Sequence record: OQ721909
Origin: Escherichia phage vB_VIPECOOM01
Reading direction: 5' to 3' (one strand)
DNA length: 64,000 nucleotides
The notes below the pieces were generated by a model. The model saw only the letters and a list, made by a program, of their open reading frames with translations. It was not told the origin of the DNA and ran no database searches. Position numbers and translations under genes: made by a program. The number at the start of each line of letters is the position of its first letter. Positions within the stretch are counted from its first letter, which is position 1. Below, piece by piece: positions 1 through 7,875 of this stretch.

Positions 1-474
<474 letters not shown>

Positions 475-930
475 TTAAAAGAGGCTGTTCATTATTCGGT
501 AAAGTGAAGGACCCATCACATATTGCCACTGAGTGCGAGGAATAAGAGCAAAAGCATCCATCTCTGGAATCATAACACCATCTTTATTTTCAAAATAAGA
601 CTCGCAATGGCAATTTCTAAACATCTCATGCTCTACTGGAATCGTATAATAAAACAGCTGTAAGTCTTTATTACTAGAATATTTAAATACACCTAGGTCT
701 TCTAGAAGGTCTGGATTATAATTGCTAAAACCGGTCTCTTCTAAGCATTCTCTTCGTGCTGCATCTAGTGCGTTTAAATCAGAATTTTCTACACGGCCTT
801 TTGGAATATCCCAGCGATGTGCCATCATTCCAGGCTTACGAGAACCAGTAACCCGTCCCATGAATAAATCTTTATCTTCTGTCATAAAGATAATACCAGC
901 TGATAATGTTTTCATTTTAATTTCCTGCAT
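475..930 (-). CDS. nudE: Nudix hydrolase
   Basis: Nudix box GRVENSDLNALDAARRECLEETG; 151 aa; position next to e as in T4 (e.1). Confidence 0.85.
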   Translation of the reverse strand: MQEIKMKTLSAGIIFMTEDKDLFMGRVTGSRKPGMMAHRWDIPKGRVENSDLNALDAARRECLEETGFSNYNPDLLEDLGVFKYSSNKDLQLFYYTIPVEHEMFRNCHCESYFENKDGVMIPEMDAFALIPRTQWQYVMGPSLYRIMNSLF

Positions 931-1400
931 TCGGTGATAAAATTATTTAAATTTTGAGTATATTTCTTTTCATCAAAAATCTTTTGCTGCCTACGTAACC
1001 GCCATGGCATTTCAATGAACACGCACCATATTCCTGATAGTACTGCTGCTGTAAAAATATTAACAAGTATAATTAAAAGAATCCAATCTTCCGTTCTGCC
1101 TACTGGACTTTCTCCAAAGAAGCAAAATACAAATGATGTCACAGGAAAACTAATAATATACCACAGAATAACCTTCTTATCTGTGAACCAATCAGCGTTC
1201 GTTAACTTAGCGCGACCATTTCGAATACACACGAATTTATCATCTGTTACAGTAGATGGCTTAACTGCTTGATATCCCATTCTAAACTCCCTAATCAGCA
1301 AATTTTTCATATCTTCGGAACAGCCATTCCAGTCAACTCTATCGACTGAAATGCCATCGTCCCCATCATCTAAATCATACCAGCGAGTTTTTAAAATCAT
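912..1400 (-). CDS. Hypothetical protein with hydrophobic segments (e.2 position)
   Basis: 162 aa ORF, overlaps neighbours in operon-like fashion; hydrophobic stretches WILLIILVNIFTAAVLSGIWCVFI. Confidence 0.55.
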   Translation of the reverse strand: MILKTRWYDLDDGDDGISVDRVDWNGCSEDMKNLLIREFRMGYQAVKPSTVTDDKFVCIRNGRAKLTNADWFTDKKVILWYIISFPVTSFVFCFFGESPVGRTEDWILLIILVNIFTAAVLSGIWCVFIEMPWRLRRQQKIFDEKKYTQNLNNFITECRKLK

Positions 1401-1759
1401 TTAATTTTCCTACAATCACTCACAAACTCTTCCATTGATTCTTTTTCAATATAAGACATGTAGTTATTATATTCCTTTAATTGTATTTTGTAATCCTTTT
1501 TTCTTTGCCAATTTATTTTAAAATTATCATAATGAAAATATAACATGGTACCAAAGAATGAAAATAATGAAATCGCTATAGTATAACGAAGTTCACTCCA
1601 AACCTCTGTTATAATTACTGTGCCGTCGATGTTTAAAATAATACAGTCAATTAACAATCCAATAAGACTACCAGCAAGAGCTGCAAATACTGACACGGCA
1701 AGAATTAATAGTGCCTCAGGAAACGAATATTTGACTTTATTTAGTTTTGGCTTTTGCAT
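1397..1759 (-). CDS. Hypothetical small membrane protein (e.3 position)
   Basis: 120 aa, two hydrophobic helices; start overlaps upstream stop. Confidence 0.55.
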   Translation of the reverse strand: MQKPKLNKVKYSFPEALLILAVSVFAALAGSLIGLLIDCIILNIDGTVIITEVWSELRYTIAISLFSFFGTMLYFHYDNFKINWQRKKDYKIQLKEYNNYMSYIEKESMEEFVSDCRKIK

Positions 1760-2154
1760 CGTGATTCCTTAACAAATTTCATAATTTCATTAAATTCATG
1801 CATATCAAGTTTAAGCTGGTGTTCCTTTTTAATCTTTTTACACTGAGCTTTCCATTCGCGTACGCGTTTACGATAATGTCTTCCTTGATACCAGTATCCT
1901 ACCCAATTTACAGGTACTAATAAAAGTGGAACTATTAATGGAAGAATTAGCATTAACACAAGTATTTCGCCAGAATCAATATCAGTCATAACATCTAAAA
2001 CACCTCCAATAATCAATAGAATCACAAATGATACAGCTACCACAGGACCTATTAATATATCAGTAGGAATTAGCCGGCGCTTTAATTCATACTTCACAGG
2101 TTTACTTGGAAGGTATAGTGATGGCTTTGACATATTCTCTACATTCCTTAACAA
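1741..2154 (-). CDS. Hypothetical membrane protein (e.4 position)
   Basis: 137 aa, strongly hydrophobic core LIGPVVAVSFVILLIIGGVLDV, basic C-terminus. Confidence 0.55.
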   Translation of the reverse strand: MLRNVENMSKPSLYLPSKPVKYELKRRLIPTDILIGPVVAVSFVILLIIGGVLDVMTDIDSGEILVLMLILPLIVPLLLVPVNWVGYWYQGRHYRKRVREWKAQCKKIKKEHQLKLDMHEFNEIMKFVKESRCKSQN

Positions 2155-2710
2155 ATTTTTCTAATAATAAATCGCTTTCAAAATTGGGATTTTCCACGAA
2201 TTTATCAAAAAGATCATCAACAATAGTCAAGATATTCTTTTTACTAAGAATACGCTTATTTTCATATTTTGTTTCAGAGTCAACTATAAGAGTAAAGAAA
2301 TATTTCTTTCCCTGAAATTTTACCGTAGTATCAATATAAAATAAATTTGACTTTTGTAAATTACGTCTAAACCCCGAGTCACTTAAACTATAAACGCCAA
2401 GATAATCATAATCGTCGTTTAAATAACAAACTGTCCATTCAGGAGAAATGAAATCAGTAAATTCAACATCAAAATCGCACGTCAATGAATGAATTGATTC
2501 AATACTGCTAATAAGTATTCCAGGACGTATTAAAGACTTTTTACCTCTATAAAATCTTCCAGAAAGACTTTCGTCAGTTTCATACGAAGACCCCCAATAG
2601 TAATTACGTCCTTCTGCCATACGTTTAAGAGCATTCAGTAATTGGTCTGGAACATCAACCTGTCTTTGGAACTCTTCAAACATTGAATTGAAATCATTTT
2701 GCATTCTCAT
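2102..2710 (-). CDS. Hypothetical protein (e.5 position)
   Basis: 202 aa ORF on the gene-dense minus strand; no motif recognised. Confidence 0.5.
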   Translation of the reverse strand: MRMQNDFNSMFEEFQRQVDVPDQLLNALKRMAEGRNYYWGSSYETDESLSGRFYRGKKSLIRPGILISSIESIHSLTCDFDVEFTDFISPEWTVCYLNDDYDYLGVYSLSDSGFRRNLQKSNLFYIDTTVKFQGKKYFFTLIVDSETKYENKRILSKKNILTIVDDLFDKFVENPNFESDLLLEKFVKECREYVKAITIPSK

Positions 2711-2730
2711 TCCTATTTACTCCAAGTAAT

Positions 2731-2746
2731 AGGGGCCGAAGCCCCT
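2731..2746 (-). other. GC-rich stem-loop AGGGGC-CGAA-GCCCCT between genes
   Basis: Perfect 6-bp stem with tetraloop; identical 16-mer recurs at 44978-44993. Confidence 0.45.
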
Positions 2747-2751
2747 TATCA

Positions 2752-3345
2752 TTATTTCAGAGAATTAATATATTCCTGGACATCAGCAGAAGTGGTTTCA
2801 ACCCCAGAAATATTACCGTTAAAGGTTTCAACTCGAGCAAGAGTATCTTCAATATCAACCTTAGTTAGCGCTGCGATTTCAACTACATCATCGGCAGTAC
2901 TAATTCCAAGGGCATTTGCCGCACGAGTTTCACGAATATATTCCAATTTAACTGCAAGTTCTTGGCGAGCATCATCTAACTCAACTACTTTCTTGGCGAT
3001 TTCAATTCGCATTTCAGCATAACCGTCAGCTTTAGTAGTCAACTGCTCAGCTGTTCGACGATATAGCAAACCGAGTTTAGCGTGCATTGTTACATCTTGA
3101 CCTTCGGAAAGAAGTTTACGAATTTCACGCTCTTTTGATTCGGCCTGTCGATTCTTTTCGACAATAAGTTCACGAATACGTTTTTCTTCATTAATAGATT
3201 TAACAGAAGCAGTTTTTAGATCTTTAATTTTATCAAGCAGTTTTGCTGCCGCAGCAGTATACTGTTCTTCAACAGATAGATTTTTAGCCATAGCAGAACC
3301 AAGTTTAGTGCGAATAAACTCAACAATTTTCTTCAGTGTGTTCAT
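2752..3345 (-). CDS. Coiled-coil protein, possibly PspA/IM30-like (e.6 position)
   Basis: 197 aa, charged heptad-like repeats throughout ([34 protein letters not shown]); family assignment is a guess. Confidence 0.5.
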
Positions 3346-3388
3346 AGTATTTCCTTAGGTTAATTGAGATTTAAAATCTGTGGAAGAA

Positions 3389-3919
3389 TTATATCCCATT
3401 ATTTGAGAGATGTAAACTATTTTTAATTTTACAAATTCGTTCAGCTTCATCGATAGCAGCATTAATAATGCTTTTAGCTATAGGAGTACTAATACTAGTA
3501 GCTTTTACACTTAACACGATTTCTTTATCTTTACCAGGCCAACCCCATGATTTTTCACCGTGAGTGCCTTTAATTACAGCAGACACCTCAAGTGAGCGTC
3601 CATTATCATATGTTTTTACATTAACAACCCAAGGGTCACTTTTCTCAATCGGTTTCTCAACCGGTTTATCCCAGTAAATATTAAGAATGCGTGGGACATC
3701 AAATTTGGCAGGACAAATCTTAACCGTAAGACCTTCGCTTTCTAGCCAATTAATAAGAGGGCGTTCATACAGGCGACGATGTGGGCTTGGGATTCGACAA
3801 GCCTTATGTCCGTTGCTTGCGGCTTCACTAAGCTGTTCTAATACCTGCTTTTGCATTATTGATAAGATACCATCAAAAGATTTTTCGGAAATTTCATTCA
3901 GTTCGGTATAAAGAGACAT
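3389..3919 (-). CDS. Hypothetical protein (e.7 position)
   Basis: 176 aa, SD gaggaa before ATG, preceded by a PeSL-type promoter. Confidence 0.6.
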   Translation of the reverse strand: MSLYTELNEISEKSFDGILSIMQKQVLEQLSEAASNGHKACRIPSPHRRLYERPLINWLESEGLTVKICPAKFDVPRILNIYWDKPVEKPIEKSDPWVVNVKTYDNGRSLEVSAVIKGTHGEKSWGWPGKDKEIVLSVKATSISTPIAKSIINAAIDEAERICKIKNSLHLSNNGI

Positions 3920-3937
3920 AACAGTTTCCTCAAATTA

Positions 3938-3974
3938 TAGGCTCATAATATCTCAATCATGAGCCTATGTAAAC
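3938..3974 (-). promoter_or_regulatory. PeSL-type early promoter with stem-loop
   Basis: Minus strand GTTTAC (-35, plus 3969-3974) abutting upstream stop codon, 17-nt spacer, TATTAT -10; stem taggctcat/atgagccta 3938-3967. Confidence 0.55.
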
Positions 3975-4238
3975 TTATTTCATATTATTGAAATATTCTT
4001 CTGCGATTTCGTCGTTATCATGGTAAACTTTAGAAGACAGTTTAACATAACCTTCTGCTGTGAACATGTTAATCACAACTTTTACAGTATACCATTGACC
4101 ATCTTCATTACCCATTACTGCGTAAGTTTCAAACATCGGATGGTCAGGACCGATAACTTTAATATCATTCACTGTACGACCGAAATCTTCTGAAACGCAT
4201 TTCATAAAGAAGTTGAACAGTTCGCCGTAATTATCCAT
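3975..4238 (-). CDS. Small hypothetical protein (e.8 position); start moved to internal ATG
   Basis: ORF track gives 3975-4292, but the ATG at 4236-4238 has a strong SD (ggagaataaaATG) and lies downstream of the promoter at 4283-4312. Confidence 0.5.
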   Translation of the reverse strand: MDNYGELFNFFMKCVSEDFGRTVNDIKVIGPDHPMFETYAVMGNEDGQWYTVKVVINMFTAEGYVKLSSKVYHDNDEIAEEYFNNMK

Positions 4239-4282
4239 TTTATTCTCCAAGTTGTTTTTCTGTATCAGTAGTTGATAGTTGT

Positions 4283-4312
4283 ATAGTACCATGGAAGAAC
4301 TGGGATGTAAAC
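4283..4312 (-). promoter_or_regulatory. Sigma70-like early promoter
   Basis: Minus strand GTTTAC -35 (plus 4307-4312), 18-nt spacer, TACTAT -10; leader shares CTATCAACTACTG with the promoter at 9376-9414. Confidence 0.45.
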
Positions 4313-4445
4313 AGTTTTGTGAAAAAATTTTTAAAAAGTTTTAGGGAATTCTAGGGAGGGAAGGGGCAATTAAAGGATAGGATAATATATTATAAAGGGT
4401 AGAAACTAAATGATGCCTAGAGAGGTCCAGAAAGGCCTAGATGCC

Positions 4446-4470
4446 AAAAAGCCCTATCATTTAGATAGGG
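4446..4470 (-). terminator. Rho-independent terminator after 4479-5042 gene
   Basis: Stem ccctatc/gataggg with loop attta, followed on the minus strand by CTTTTTGG. Confidence 0.6.
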
Positions 4471-4478
4471 ATTTAAAA

Positions 4479-5042
4479 TTATTTATCTAGTTTAGTTATT
4501 ATAGCTTCTGCGGCAGCTTTTAGCTTAGATGCGGTGTTAATACGATTTTTAATTTCAGTATACGCATCGCCAAGAACATCAAGGCTATCAGAATAAACAC
4601 TTACACTATTGCGTTCGCTATTTGAAATAGAACCTTTAGTTTTACGATCAAAATCGGTGTACACGTCTTGAAGATCACGGGCTGCCTTCTTTGCATCATC
4701 CAATGCGTCAAGAGCTTTATTCAAAGCATTAACGTATTTTTTAGTGTCGAACATATTCTTAGAAATTTTAACAGGTGCGCGTTCAGGAGTAGCTAATGCA
4801 GATTTAGGAACCTGAGCGCCAGATGCCAATTTCTTAGAAATTTTGAAAAACGCTTTATTGAATTTATTTTCTTGACTCATCGTAAAAGAACTATTATCGA
4901 TGTTGTACATTTCAATAGCTTTAGCTTTCCACTTAAGAAAATCGCCGCGGTCTTTTGGGTCCAAGTGGAAGAATACTTTAGTAAGATCTGCTTCAGATGG
5001 TAATTTTGCTGCTTCGGTTAAAAATTCGGCATAGGTTTTCAT
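4479..5042 (-). CDS. Internal-protein-like protein with N-terminal capsid-targeting sequence
   Basis: N-terminus MKTYAEFLTEAA matches the T4 internal protein CTS pattern (MKTYQEFIAE) plus an L-x-E prohead protease site; lysine-rich body; bracketed by terminators. Confidence 0.6.
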   Translation of the reverse strand: MKTYAEFLTEAAKLPSEADLTKVFFHLDPKDRGDFLKWKAKAIEMYNIDNSSFTMSQENKFNKAFFKISKKLASGAQVPKSALATPERAPVKISKNMFDTKKYVNALNKALDALDDAKKAARDLQDVYTDFDRKTKGSISNSERNSVSVYSDSLDVLGDAYTEIKNRINTASKLKAAAEAIITKLDK

Positions 5043-5131
5043 TTAAAATCCTTGAAATGATTTATCAGTTGGTTATTAATTATTTATTACTTTGCTATTA
5101 TCTGCAGCAGCATTCTCTATGTGATTCAAAC

Positions 5132-5160
5132 TAAAAAGCCCCGACCGAAAGGTCGGGGCT
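5132..5160 (-). terminator. Rho-independent terminator
   Basis: Stem agccccgacc/ggtcggggct with GAAA loop, followed by UUUUU on the minus strand. Confidence 0.75.
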
Positions 5161-5167
5161 AAGAATG

Positions 5168-5641
5168 TTATTTGATTTGTTTAGCAGACCAAATGCGGTC
5201 TTTAATAATTTTTTGGATGTCTTCAACATACTCTAGGTCATGAGCATGTGGGTTATCTTTGAAACTATAAGCACGAGCTAGTTTTTGGCCTTCAGTTTTG
5301 ATTACTAAAAGCTCTTTAAGGATAGCTTCATATTTAGCGATAATTCCTTTAACAATATTTTTTTCTTGTGCAACTTTAGGATCTGCTTTAGGAGCAGGTT
5401 TACCCGAAGCCTTTGCAAAAGCAGCGCCAGTAGCAACTAAACTTTTCCAGGCCATACTAACTGCATTTCCTGTAAATCCTTCTGCTTTCATGTCGCGGGC
5501 AAATTGGAATCGTGATTCGTCAGAAGCATCTTTATAGGAATATTTACCCGCTGCAATGGCTGCTTTTGCGACAGCTTGAATTTCGGTGCTAGATGCTTCA
5601 TTTAACACCGCTTCATTTAAAAATTGAGCATATGATTTCAT
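5168..5641 (-). CDS. Internal-protein-like protein with N-terminal capsid-targeting sequence
   Basis: N-terminus MKSYAQFLNEAV (CTS-like, L-N-E cleavage motif); own late promoter upstream and terminator downstream. Confidence 0.6.
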   Translation of the reverse strand: MKSYAQFLNEAVLNEASSTEIQAVAKAAIAAGKYSYKDASDESRFQFARDMKAEGFTGNAVSMAWKSLVATGAAFAKASGKPAPKADPKVAQEKNIVKGIIAKYEAILKELLVIKTEGQKLARAYSFKDNPHAHDLEYVEDIQKIIKDRIWSAKQIK

Positions 5642-5680
5642 CTTATTTCCTGTTTTAATTCGTGATTTAATATACTACTA

Positions 5681-5688
5681 TATTTATA
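5681..5688 (-). promoter_or_regulatory. T4 late promoter TATAAATA (minus strand)
   Basis: Plus tatttata at 5681-5688, about 40 nt upstream of the 5641 start. Confidence 0.6.
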
Positions 5689-5690
5689 CT

Positions 5691-5718
5691 AAAAAGCCCC
5701 AACCTTTCGGTCGGGGCT
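5691..5718 (-). terminator. Rho-independent terminator closing the tRNA/small-RNA transcription unit
   Basis: Stem agccccaacc/ggtcggggct (one G-U), loop TTTC, then UUUUU on minus strand. Confidence 0.7.
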
Positions 5719-5725
5719 AAGCCTT

Positions 5726-6030
5726 GCGGCAACCTTGTCGGGGTTCCACCTGCTAAGGCAAGTGTTTGTACGAAACGCCGGGATTCGAACCCGGTTATTA
5801 AGCAGTTGACGCTACTCAATATTTTTAAAAGGCCATATCTCGACCATATCCGAACGTTCCGTCAAAAACGCTACTCGGCTTACGGCAAAGATATTTCCTC
5901 GAATCGATAATTCGGTGCGCCGTTTCTGCTGTGATGTAAGGGGATATTAACAAATCGTAAAGATTTATTAAGACCAGTCCTTACGCAGGGAACATCAGTC
6001 CGACGACTTACCGGTAGCGACCCGGTTTCT
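5726..6030 (-). ncRNA. ORF-free structured region, candidate stable small RNA(s) co-transcribed with the tRNAs
   Basis: No ORF of 60 aa or more on either strand over about 300 bp despite dense coding elsewhere; tRNA-like T-arm CCGGG-TTCGAAT-CCCGG (5778-5794) with pairing acceptor-like strands CGGAACG/CGTTTCG (5855-5861 / 5771-5777) but no canonical D or anticodon arm; sits between tRNA operon and terminator. T4 has species 1/2 stable RNAs near its tRNAs. Confidence 0.35.
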
Positions 6031-6380
6031 TAATATTCTTTTAAAGCATCAATTTGTTCACGGCGTTTACGCCATAAATCAATTGCTTCATACGCAGATT
6101 CAGCATTTCGAATTGGACGGCATTTATATAAAGACTTATGATTTTGATATTGTGTAGATAACGGAATTTTATCTAAAAGGTCTTTACGTTCAAAATATTC
6201 GTAACCATCTAAACCAAATGAACGATTTTTGAGAAATTGCCAATGACCGTATTCGTTTTCGACATAAACATAATCCGCGTGTTGATAAAGCAAATTAATT
6301 ACACGTTCAGAAATAACAGTGTCATTGTGATTAAAATAAAATGTTAAATCATGAACTACTAAATAAACATTACCTTTCAT
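6030..6380 (-). CDS. Hypothetical protein embedded in the tRNA operon
   Basis: 116 aa, SD gaggaaaat before ATG, starts 17 nt after tRNA-Arg on same strand. Confidence 0.55.
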   Translation of the reverse strand: MKGNVYLVVHDLTFYFNHNDTVISERVINLLYQHADYVYVENEYGHWQFLKNRSFGLDGYEYFERKDLLDKIPLSTQYQNHKSLYKCRPIRNAESAYEAIDLWRKRREQIDALKEY

Positions 6381-6396
6381 ATTTTCCTCACTTAAT

Positions 6397-6472
6397 TGGT
6401 CGAGGCAGTAGGGATCGAACCTACGACCTAGGACTTAGAAGGTCCTTGCTCTTCCTTCTGAGCTATGCCCCG
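6397..6472 (-). tRNA. tRNA-Arg (anticodon TCT)
   Basis: Hand-folded cloverleaf, anticodon loop CTTCTAA, T-loop GGTTCGATCC, CCA encoded. Confidence 0.8.
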
Positions 6473-6476
6473 TAAT

Positions 6477-6552
6477 TGGGGTGACCGATGGGAGTCGAAC
6501 CCATGACTACGAGAATCACAATCTCGAGTTCTACCAACTGAACTACGGCCAC
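6477..6552 (-). tRNA. tRNA-His (anticodon GTG)
   Basis: 76 nt cloverleaf; anticodon arm CGAGA-TTGTGAT-TCTCG; closely resembles E. coli tRNA-His from memory. Confidence 0.7.
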
Positions 6553-6666
6553 ATTAATACCTACTCCAACAATCAAGATGTCTTCACACGAAATTAAGAG
6601 AAGAGTGATCAGTTCAACCCCGATAATCGCGTCAAGTAGATATTAATGTGACAATTGTCACAAATT

Positions 6667-6741
6667 TGGCGGACGTGATAGGATTCGAACCTATAACCAA
6701 TCGCTTAACAGGCGATCGCTCTGCCATTGAGCTACACATCC
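6667..6741 (-). tRNA. tRNA-Asn (anticodon GTT)
   Basis: 75 nt; anticodon loop CTGTTAA; T-arm ATAGG-TTCGAAT-CCTAT; CCA encoded. Confidence 0.7.
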
Positions 6742-6745
6742 AAAT

Positions 6746-6832
6746 TGGTGGGGAGTGATGGAGTCGAACCACCCGAGTCGCAATGACAATGGATTTACAG
6801 TCCACACCGCTACCTCTACGGGATAACTCCCC
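6746..6832 (-). tRNA. tRNA-Tyr (anticodon GTA), long variable arm
   Basis: 87 nt; anticodon loop CTGTAAA; long extra arm; CCA encoded. Confidence 0.7.
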
Positions 6833-6845
6833 TTAATTCTTAATT

Positions 6846-6920
6846 TGGTGGCCCTGGGTGGAATTGAACCACCATCTGGCGATTATGAGTCGCTTGCTTG
6901 AACCTTCCAGCTACAGGGCC
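6846..6920 (-). tRNA. tRNA with CAT anticodon, most likely Ile (lysidine type); Met not excluded
   Basis: 75 nt; anticodon arm AGCGA-CTCATAA-TCGCC resembles E. coli tRNA-Ile2 from memory; T4 tRNA-Ile also carries CAU. Confidence 0.65.
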
Positions 6921-6929
6921 AAATTTTTC

Positions 6930-7412
6930 TTATTTTATGTAATATTTATTTAAAAACTTTCTAGCTTGAGTATGGCTAACATTTATAGCGTTTGCATAAT
7001 TTTTAATAAAACCTCGTTCATCCATATTAAAATTTTCTAATATTTTTAATCGTCTAATTATCTCATCTTGGCTTAAGGTACTTGCATTATTTTTAGAAAT
7101 TTTTTCTAAAGACTGCACTGAGTGTTTTCGACCATTAAAATTAAAATTTTTAGGTTTTGGAGGAAATCTATCATTTAGTCTCGCATCTTTTGTATTTTGA
7201 TTATTAGTTGCGCAATATATGTTATTTAATGAGTATGGTCCTTTATCACCAAAACGACACATACAGTATTCATGACCCTTTCTTCCACGCTTATCATAAT
7301 TTCCCGTTGATTTCCACCAATTCAACCACTCATCAAAAGTTAAATTCCATTCAATGTTTCTACGTATAGCAGAATTCCGCTGAGAAATATATTTTGCATA
7401 ATCTTCTTTCAT
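6930..7412 (-). mobile_element. Free-standing HNH-like (His-Me finger) homing endonuclease gene inserted between tRNA genes
   Basis: 160 aa; EWNLTFDEW plus CxC and GDKGPYSLNNIYCATNNQN motif resembling degenerate phage HNH nucleases; basic C-terminal HTH-like tail; interrupts the tRNA cluster. Confidence 0.5.
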
Positions 7413-7459
7413 CGCAAATTTCTCTACTTATTGCATACACTAAGCTAAATCAGCAAAAC

Positions 7460-7549
7460 TGGCGGAGGCGATAGGATTTGAACCTATGAGTCGCCGGAGC
7501 GACTGCCGGTTTTCAAGACCGGTGCATTAAACCACTCTGCCACGCCTCC
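7460..7549 (-). tRNA. tRNA-Ser (anticodon TGA), long variable arm
   Basis: 90 nt; anticodon arm CCGGT-CTTGAAA-ACCGG; CCA encoded. Confidence 0.8.
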
Positions 7550-7551
7550 AG

Positions 7552-7625
7552 TCTCCGCGGCAGGATTTGAACCTGCGACATTCTGCTCCCAAAGCAGACG
7601 CTCTACCAAACTGAGCTACACGGAG
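7552..7625 (-). tRNA. tRNA-Pro (anticodon TGG), CCA not encoded
   Basis: Anticodon arm TCTGC-TTTGGGA-GCAGA; abuts tRNA-Ser with 2-nt spacer, as in the T4 Pro-Ser dimeric precursor. Confidence 0.8.
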
Positions 7626-7635
7626 TAAATTAAAT

Positions 7636-7709
<74 letters not shown>

Positions 7710-7714
7710 AAATT

Positions 7715-7801
7715 TGGTGCGAGAAGTGGGACTCGAACCCACAAGGAAATCATTCCGCAGCATTTTAAGTGCTGTGCCTTTACCAATTTGACCATTCTCG
7801 C
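7715..7801 (-). tRNA. tRNA-Leu (anticodon TAA), long variable arm
   Basis: 87 nt; anticodon arm CAGCA-CTTAAAA-TGCTG; CCA encoded. Confidence 0.8.
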
Positions 7802-7802
7802 G

Positions 7803-7875
7803 CTGGGAATAAAGGACTCGAACCTTTGCATCTAGCAGTCAAAGTGCTATGCCTTACCAACTTGGCTAATTCCCA
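7803..7875 (-). tRNA. tRNA-Gln (anticodon TTG), CCA not encoded
   Basis: Anticodon arm TAGCA-CTTTGAC-TGCTA; 1-nt spacer to tRNA-Leu as in the T4 Gln-Leu dimer. Confidence 0.8.

Follow-up and report, generated by a model that had tools for sequence, protein, structure and literature searches.

The closest described counterparts of the gene product considered here are PspA of Escherichia coli (PF04012; PDB 4WHE) and the cyanobacterial and chloroplast protein Vipp1 (IM30; PDB 7O3W, 6ZVR and 8QBR), which represent the bacterial branch of the ESCRT-III superfamily. Archaeal and eukaryotic ESCRT-III proteins (CdvB, CdvB2 and Snf7/CHMP) share the helical hairpin core with it, lack the PspA-type arrangement of the N-terminal helix α0, and work with the Vps4 ATPase. 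Both ESCRT-III and PspA proteins can remodel membranes, and E. coli PspA also negatively regulates PspF through its hairpin region. Here we describe the gene e.6, located at positions 2752..3345 of the minus strand in a 64,000-nucleotide (nt) stretch of DNA (the window) of Escherichia phage vB_VIPECOOM01 (record OQ721909), a member of the genus Tequatrovirus. Its product can be assigned with high confidence to the PspA/IM30/Vipp1 family, as a highly divergent homologue whose relationship is detectable only at the family or profile-profile level.

The open reading frame (ORF) starts with ATG and encodes a protein of 197 amino acids (aa) that is 99.5% identical to T4 e.6 (P39224, T4p129); the orthologue is annotated as coding sequence VIPECOOM03_00128 (WFG78291.1) in OQ721911.1. 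The protein matches phrog_1203 (E=1.1e-87), a family listed under "unknown function". It was found by tblastn in 1,098 of 50,697 phage records, mostly Straboviridae infecting Escherichia, Klebsiella, Shigella, Aeromonas, Enterobacter, Yersinia and other hosts, and the T4 protein has been seen by proteomics (PMC9697503 supplement), so e.6 is a real gene. The phrog_1203 family as a whole occurs in Straboviridae and Ackermannviridae. Although T4 is the reference lytic phage, its e.6 is still entered as "conserved hypothetical / unknown function" in functional-genomics tables of 2022-2025, its annotation does not yet carry the PspA link, and literature searches by gene name or accession found no paper on the function of T4 e.6.

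Charged residues (D/E/K/R) make up 34% of the e.6 protein, which contains no Pro, Trp or Cys. About 85% of its residues are helical in the AlphaFold model analysed with DSSP (residues 3-22, 25-80 and 86-145, plus three short helices), and hydrophobic residues recur over the whole protein with a 3.5-residue periodicity (z=6.7) that was reached by only one of 2000 shuffles. An earlier interpretation of the window, made from the letters alone and referred to below as the sequence-only reading, had described the protein as an almost entirely charged, heptad-like helix reminiscent of PspA/IM30, and both parts of this description are borne out by the results presented here.

The evidence for homology comes primarily from profile-profile comparison. 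The reference alignment comprised 17 PspA/Vipp1 sequences, namely nine enterobacterial PspA proteins, proteins of Aeromonas, Nostoc, Rhodococcus, Niallia and Salinibaculum, two gut-contig proteins and Synechocystis Vipp1, and thus spanned Proteobacteria, Cyanobacteria, Actinomycetota, Bacillota and a haloarchaeon. The more diverse sequences came from tblastn matches in plasmids and in contigs of phages, and Vipp1 was taken from a PDB alignment; the homologues of E. coli PspA were all at least 86% identical among the matches listed, and a genome-contig scan gave only Enterobacterales sequences with at least 78% identity. When an alignment of 55 e.6 family sequences (A3) was compared with this reference, hhalign joined e.6 residues 1-197 and PspA residues 1-222 end to end in 198 collinear columns, with a probability of 96.2% (score 64.7, P=2.3e-9). 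The probability rose from 87-89% to 96% with a more diverse PspA profile, which is the behaviour expected of true remote homology. It was 95.4% without the Ackermannviridae members, among them the Pfam-positive ones, and 87.7% for the close T4-like set (A1) alone, with reversed controls at 0.5-1.3%; since the signal survives the removal of a few atypical members, it is not due to them.

Another explanation of this result is that e.6 encodes a generic coiled coil, whose likeness to PspA is compositional or convergent and whose role is unrelated, e.g. in "host specificity" or "tail completion". The sequence-only reading had regarded a generic coiled coil as the default, and coiled coils do inflate profile scores: single members of the e.6 family match many unrelated coiled-coil Pfam families with E-values of 0.001-1, and the T4-type protein has no direct sequence match in Pfam, NCBIfam or the PDB. 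Controls that preserve composition and periodicity were run for this reason. Reversed profiles scored 19.5-21.1 (probability 1-2%), 80 block-shuffled and reversed profiles scored 16.5±2.8 (maximum 26.5) and 60 column shuffles scored 12.6±2.4, against 64.7 for the real alignment. Moreover, the e.6-PspA alignment is collinear through segments outside the coiled coil, including α0, the hairpin tip and the α4/α5 motifs, two family members exceed the PF04012 threshold, and early expression is incompatible with a role in the virion or tail. These findings make a merely compositional likeness very unlikely and do not support the default proposed earlier.

In GenBank and UniProt, records of e.6 homologues often carry the label "host specificity protein", for which one record points to "ACLAME 1259" as the source; a single record has "tail completion protein" instead. 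No domain, fold or timing supports these labels, which conflict with early expression, and no tail-fibre or host-range domain was found in e.6 by Pfam and PHROG searches. The labels appear to be propagated misannotations.

A direct bridge to PspA is provided by distant members of the family. Two of them (P0065 and P0066) were reached over their full length by the T4-like profile (E=1.5e-21 and 2.9e-20, respectively) and score 35.1 and 39.0 bits against PF04012 (E=1.4e-8 and 8.9e-10), above its gathering threshold of 33.9 bits, with residues 6-146 aligned to profile positions 2-143. Another member, P0067, stays below the threshold with 22.3 bits. The close relatives of P0065 and P0066 are Kuttervirus and Taipeivirus-type proteins. 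Distant members from Ackermannviridae, the family of Kuttervirus, thus reach the PF04012 threshold directly, whereas T4-type e.6 does not. The N-termini of the distant members (MGILSRIK, MSIFQRLK and MNIFKRLF) strongly recall MGIFSRF of PspA and MGLFDRL of Vipp1. In our judgement, the homology of e.6 and PspA is settled by the profile-profile result, the Pfam bridge and the amphipathic N-terminal helix taken together.

Across 1.84 billion representative sequences, a HMMER search with the e.6 family profile recovered only 45 clusters (50% identity), and all full-length members are 195-209 aa long; e.6 thus represents a separate, much more divergent, phage-only clade. HMMER with the 55-sequence profile yielded neither new members nor bridging sequences. 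The most divergent member (P0083) has been deposited under Proteus mirabilis (CAXOLO010000022.1, 8001..8600; GCA_964210295.1). Its contig is 50.5 kb long, and the genes on it share one strand and, with few exceptions, have no Pfam match; a gene for the small subunit of ribonucleotide reductase is also present. The contig has the appearance of phage DNA within a bacterial assembly.

AlphaFold2 models of e.6 were built with 30 and then with 55 sequences, giving mean predicted local distance difference test (pLDDT) values of 74.7 and 80.1. The structure prediction that had been suggested in the sequence-only reading places α0, α1 and α2/3 at PspA-like positions. The N-terminal helix (residues 3-22; 3280..3339, minus strand, as for all elements of the gene) is amphipathic and cationic, is aligned by hhalign to PspA residues 1-22 and corresponds to the membrane-binding α0 of PspA/Vipp1. 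Its hydrophobic moment of 0.45 (family median 0.43) compares with 0.49 for E. coli PspA, 0.61 for Vipp1 and 0.37-0.61 across seven PspA/Vipp1 proteins; its amphipathicity therefore lies within the PspA range, and a role in membrane binding is predicted. It is followed by the first hairpin arm, α1 (residues 25-80; 3106..3273), which has a pLDDT of 87-97, aligns with PspA α1 and shows the 3.5-residue periodicity with z=3.7. The hairpin tip EGQDV (residues 81-85; 3091..3105) is a loop in the model and is aligned by hhalign to KERED at residues 81-85 of PspA. It precedes an LARxAL-type segment; K90, L91, L94 and R96 do not vary among the sequences of alignment A1. The second arm, α2/3 (residues 86-145; 2911..3090; pLDDT 80-93), aligns with PspA α2/3, and together the two arms are predicted to form an antiparallel hairpin of the PspA type with pLDDT values of 80-97.

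The C-terminal part was modelled with lower confidence (49-88 for helices 151-160, 166-174 and 186-196) and aligns to the α4/α5 motifs of PspA. Two short helices (151-160 and 166-174; pLDDT 60-80) are the putative equivalent of α4 (residues 151-174; 2824..2895), and the motif LARVETF of e.6 is found where PspA has MARFESFE and Vipp1 SAFERME. The last helix, EYINSLK (residues 186-196; 2758..2790), is aligned by hhalign to the end of PspA α5 (QLAQLKAKM), and Y192, S195, L196 and K197 are nearly invariant in alignment A1.

The comparison of the models with known structures gave a concordant picture. In Foldseek searches of the PDB, Vipp1 structures were the best matches: they took ranks 1-8 with the first model (best E=3.7e-4) and ranks 1-11 with the second (best E=6.7e-4). 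Below them came the ESCRT-III proteins CdvB/CdvB2 of archaea (E=0.04-0.14) and PspA. Vipp1 chain 6zvs_A was aligned with a target TM-score of 0.69-0.71 and a root-mean-square deviation of 2.8 over 120 columns. The hairpin core of ESCRT-III could thus be recognized in the e.6 model, with a weaker signal than for PspA/Vipp1, and ESCRT-III proteins constitute a second tier of matches. A search of BFVD retrieved, after the family members themselves, a "PspA/IM30 family protein" of Acinetobacter phage vB_AbaM_ME3 and a giant-virus Snf7 protein (ranks 7-8). Both viral proteins belong to the same superfamily and resemble cellular proteins so closely that automatic annotation could name them, while e.6 is far more divergent.

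E. coli PspA is of similar size (222 aa versus 197 aa for e.6) and has near-identical helix limits (α0 ~2-22, α1 ~25-80, tip 81-85, α2/3 ~86-145). Both proteins have an amphipathic N-terminal helix, and they share ~13-15% identity. The charge of α0 differs (+4 in e.6, -2 in PspA), and the C-terminal extension α6 of Vipp1 is absent from e.6. Unlike PspA, e.6 belongs to a lytic phage, is preceded by a putative early promoter and has no pspF or pspBC partners: no psp genes were found at the phage locus, which was compared with the E. coli psp locus, and e.6 is not associated with a Vps4-like gene.

Several results weigh against this placement. The AEDP linker of PspA is not conserved in e.6, which has KNLSVEE without proline, and ~25 PspA residues between α4 and α5 have no counterpart. 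The profile PspA_IM30 (PF04012) did not match the e.6 protein at E<=10, and for 30 close relatives (at least 47% identity) it was not among the matches listed (25 families for most), which were scattered, sub-threshold coiled-coil families. The sequence-only reading had named the lack of a significant profile match as grounds for abandoning the PspA likeness, and following that advice would have been misleading here. With the single protein as query, neither NCBIfam nor PADLOC nor the PDB sequences yielded a significant match. A PDB search with the family profile gave only non-significant matches, the best being to Vipp1, which was aligned collinearly in three of them (query 4-143 versus chain 4-145; E=1.4-3.4). 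When hhalign was run with just one PspA sequence, the probability was 0.5%, with a short, collinear and non-significant match of e.6 150-182 to PspA 148-178. Finally, the Foldseek E-values are modest, TM-scores with Vipp1 are ~0.45-0.5, and long helical hairpins are common folds. The low TM-scores can be explained by the conformation of the structures, since the monomer model is closed and the deposited protomers are in polymer conformations.

The link between phrog_1203 and PspA was proposed in 2022 on the basis of an HHpred match of a Kuttervirus protein (PMC9409062), and the name "PspA/IM30 family protein" appears on at least one of the Kuttervirus GenBank records listed; this protein falls in phrog_1203 with E=4.2e-66. 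Kuttervirus members, such as Gp_125 of Salmonella phage SeF3a and ORF8 of vB_SentM_sal1, have the same length and architecture as T4 e.6 and share ~22-25% identity with it. What is new is the controlled demonstration for T4-type proteins and the rejection of the lysis and annotation-label interpretations of e.6.

The gene is preceded by a Shine-Dalgarno sequence, AAGGA, located 6 nt before the ATG (3352..3356, minus strand). Further upstream, at 3388..3416 (minus strand), there is a near-consensus σ70-type (T4 early-type) putative promoter, TTTACA-17-TATAAT, which matches the consensus at 11 of 12 positions and is the best promoter-like site within 1..6500. It lies within the 3′-terminal part of the preceding 176-aa ORF, with 42 nt between its end and the start codon of e.6, and, judged from its sequence, presumably serves e.6. 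The site agrees with the early-RNA class of T4 e.6, which was assigned to "early-RNA_middle-Protein" in time-resolved omics (PMC9697503 supplement). Downstream, a GC-rich hairpin with a UUCG tetraloop (AGGGGC-UUCG-GCCCCU; 2731..2746, minus strand), revealed by the sequence and by RNA folding, lies between e.6 and e.5, 5 nt past the e.6 stop codon. It folds with -13.1 kcal/mol (z only -1.5), and a paper on a related phage (PMC5931544) lists it as the terminator "e.6". As it has no U-tract, it is probably an mRNA-stabilizing or weak terminator hairpin.

All genes near e.6 lie on the minus strand, and their order along transcription is: tRNA cluster, two phrog_2280 genes, e.8, the 176-aa ORF (phrog_6869), e.6, e.5, e.4, e.3, e.2, nudE and e. 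The last of these is the endolysin gene, and its 3′ part is found at positions 1..438 of the window. Because of this orientation, e.6 is located upstream of e, by ~2.3 kb, and not downstream as had been stated from the sequence; nudE and four other genes (e.5 to e.2) intervene. The small membrane proteins noted around it do exist, since e.2, e.3 and e.4, encoded between e.6 and e, are predicted membrane proteins. This gene block and the membrane-remodelling capacity of PspA and ESCRT-III proteins could suggest that e.6 forms an ESCRT-III-like polymer that remodels the inner membrane at lysis, or that it sets holin timing or lysis inhibition. Timing speaks against such a role, as early RNA and middle protein are unlike late lysis genes and the gene has a σ70-type putative promoter of its own. 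On the T4 map, the holin gene t and the genes for the spanins and the antiholin lie away from e.6 and e, and we know of no lysis cassette at the e.6 locus of T4-type phages. The only weak match of e.6 to a lysis protein is to an Rz-like spanin family (phrog_1267, E=0.22), and e.6 contains no hydrophobic transmembrane segment. Furthermore, e and the spanins are essential or give a strong defect in HIDEN-SEQ, where transposon insertions were tolerated at all 43 of 43 TA sites of e.6, scored as "Non-essential" (preprint), and the Kuttervirus homologue is encoded among replication genes (ligase and gp59) and not among lysis genes. With neither a plaque nor a fitness phenotype, a lysis-timing or lysis-execution function, as the sequence-only reading had suggested, is very improbable.

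It has been shown that T4 e.6 is transcribed early, that its protein accumulates in the middle period and that T4 can do without the gene on laboratory E. coli K-12. On the strength of its homology and timing, we consider it reasonably probable that e.6 is an early, phage-encoded, PspA-like stabilizer of the inner membrane and not a lysis factor. By analogy with PspA, the protein would dock on the cytoplasmic face of the inner membrane via α0 and would self-assemble through its hairpin into a protective coat that curbs leakage of protons and ions. The phage would thus supply its own "phage-shock" effector. T4 shuts off host transcription globally within minutes, and as this bars σ54/PspF-dependent induction of the host psp genes, a phage-borne copy of PspA makes sense. 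The expected benefit would be the maintenance of proton-motive force during damage by genome injection or superinfection, overload with membrane proteins, or attack by membrane-directed defences, and the early/middle timing points to protection during take-over, replication and superinfection rather than at lysis.

The published phenotypes count against this role. CRISPRi-ART knock-down of T4 e.6 was scored "Not Fit" (0.30, p=0.20), i.e. without fitness effect (PMC11879866), and the insertions described above were tolerated throughout the gene. In a host carrying the membrane-depolarizing RexAB system, e.6 insertions were not depleted (log2 fold change +0.18, p=0.61, adjusted p=1), the reported hits being rIIA/rIIB (HIDEN-SEQ preprint). 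No phenotype so far supports a membrane-protection role for e.6.

The RexAB result also bears on the idea that e.6 is a counter-defence factor directed against membrane-depolarizing or -permeabilizing systems, such as RexAB or CBASS-type transmembrane effectors, and not a factor of general homeostasis. Such a function has been suggested for the Kuttervirus member of phrog_1203 (PMC9409062), and T4 e.6 is early, accessory and dispensable on K-12, as is typical of anti-defence genes, and is located in a hypervariable accessory region adjoining the tRNA/seg cluster. An anti-Rex role in particular is unsupported by the published transposon data, although redundancy with rII could mask an effect. 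No matches to PADLOC or other defence-related entries were found, and the presence of the family in ~1,100 phage genomes from many hosts fits a general function better than a match to a single defence. We therefore regard counter-defence as unlikely, though worth bearing in mind.

The conservation pattern is also relevant to a regulatory explanation, in which e.6 would bind host PspF or PspB/PspC and so silence or hijack the Psp response without acting on the membrane. The hairpin, through which E. coli PspA controls PspF, is the best-conserved part of e.6. However, the global shut-off by T4 makes the silencing of one σ54 regulon seem superfluous, the family occurs at low identity also in Aeromonas, Klebsiella, Serratia and Erwinia phages, and the amphipathic α0 is conserved across the family, which argues for membrane binding. 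Regulatory mimicry is accordingly highly improbable.

Placement of e.6 in the PspA superfamily offers a concrete, testable function for a gene that occurs in the sequenced genomes of more than 1,000 Straboviridae and Ackermannviridae. It also suggests that a membrane-stress effector of their own allows large lytic phages to keep the host membrane energized once the host cannot respond. As a very small, divergent PspA, e.6 may also serve structure-function work on whether α0 and the hairpin suffice for membrane protection.

A more elaborate scheme would place e.6 in a phage-specific "Psp-like module" as its cytoplasmic effector, with the small membrane proteins encoded next to it on the downstream side acting as sensors or recruiters analogous to PspB/PspC. 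In T4-like phages the partners could be e.2, e.3 and e.4 together with e.5; in Kutterviruses they could be membrane proteins unrelated to these. We consider this scheme quite doubtful. If it were true, T4 would actively cover the inner membrane with a coat of the ESCRT-III type soon after infection, and the module would represent a minimal virus-encoded ESCRT-III/PspA machine in the classic T4 system, tractable enough for genetic dissection of its triggers and targets.

The downstream genes e.5 (2102..2710), e.4 (1741..2133), e.3 (1397..1759) and e.2 (912..1400) are all encoded on the minus strand. Judged by hydrophobicity and the positive-inside rule, e.2, e.3 and e.4 look like proteins with two transmembrane helices and cytoplasmic, Lys/Arg-rich C-terminal tails. 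Their position 3′ of a PspA homologue recalls the order pspA-pspB-pspC, but no homology to PspB/C was found, and PHROG and PADLOC gave no link to PspB/PspC. Each of the products of e.2-e.5 has the motif F-[IV]-x-[ED]-[CS]-R at its C-terminal end (NNFITECRKLK, EEFVSDCRKIK and MKFVKESRCKSQN, each running up to the stop codon, and EKFVKECREYVK). Among the 130 ORFs of the window (23,663 residues), this regular expression matches only at these four places, 3-11 residues from the C-terminus, and similar FIxxC(R/I/K) tails are encoded by genes 3′ of the e.6 homologues in Marfa, phiR1-RT, AS-zj and RB43. The motif codons (AAG GAA TGT AGA / TGC AGG AAA) overlap the Shine-Dalgarno sequence or start region of the next, overlapping gene; a cause at the nucleotide level (translational coupling or tandem duplication) is therefore at least as likely as a docking peptide for e.6. 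The motif may thus be a signature of translational coupling or duplication rather than a docking peptide.

Homologues of e.6 in Marfavirus, Tegunavirus, Ceceduovirus and Pseudotevenvirus keep their place in an accessory block of small genes, which adjoins tRNA genes in Marfavirus and Tegunavirus and runs to nudE and e in Tegunavirus. Neighbouring genes vary widely. A membrane-protein gene recurs directly or closely 3′ of e.6, and no homologous partner gene is conserved. In Klebsiella phage Marfa (5567..7139) and Yersinia phage phiR1-RT (5559..6300), e.6 is followed by runs of ORFs of 65-100 aa. Their products all have the C-terminal tail W-x-SSS-x(0-2)-C (e.g. GWVSSSEMC, IWHPSSC and VWASSSSDC) and make up a family of repeated small proteins, and the phiR1-RT block continues to nudE and e.

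The neighbours of the phrog_1203 gene in Kutterviruses differ from, and are not homologous to, those in T4-type phages, although membrane-protein genes lie downstream in both. In Salmonella phage vB_SentM_sal1 (MT499896.1, 2921..4396), the phrog_1203 gene is followed immediately by two membrane-protein genes at 3567..4139 (phrog_11433) and 4136..4396, within a locus placed among replication genes. Their products are unrelated in sequence to T4 e.2-e.5, and no homology was detected when e.5 was compared with the membrane protein encoded downstream in the Kuttervirus (BLASTP E=0.09); the two fall into different PHROGs.

Upstream of e.6, the 176-aa ORF (phrog_6869; 3389..3919, minus strand) shows weaker matches to three other PHROGs. 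The corresponding position in T4 is held by e.7, which encodes 112 aa, and the ORF is therefore regarded as a mosaic replacement. Two paralogous ORFs, both matching phrog_2280 and annotated as hypothetical, lie at 4479..5042 and 5168..5641 (minus strand). Their products start with MKTYAEFLTEA and MKSYAQFLNEA, which we take to resemble the N-terminal capsid-targeting sequence of IPII/IPIII, internal proteins of T4. Downstream of each ORF there is a strong terminator composed of a GC-rich hairpin and a T-run (5160-5137 and 5718-5695 for the upstream pair). Beyond them, a cluster of ten tRNA genes (6397..7875, minus strand) is split by an ORF of 160 aa (6930..7412, minus strand; phrog_16521), annotated as hypothetical, which occupies the place of the homing endonuclease gene segB in T4.

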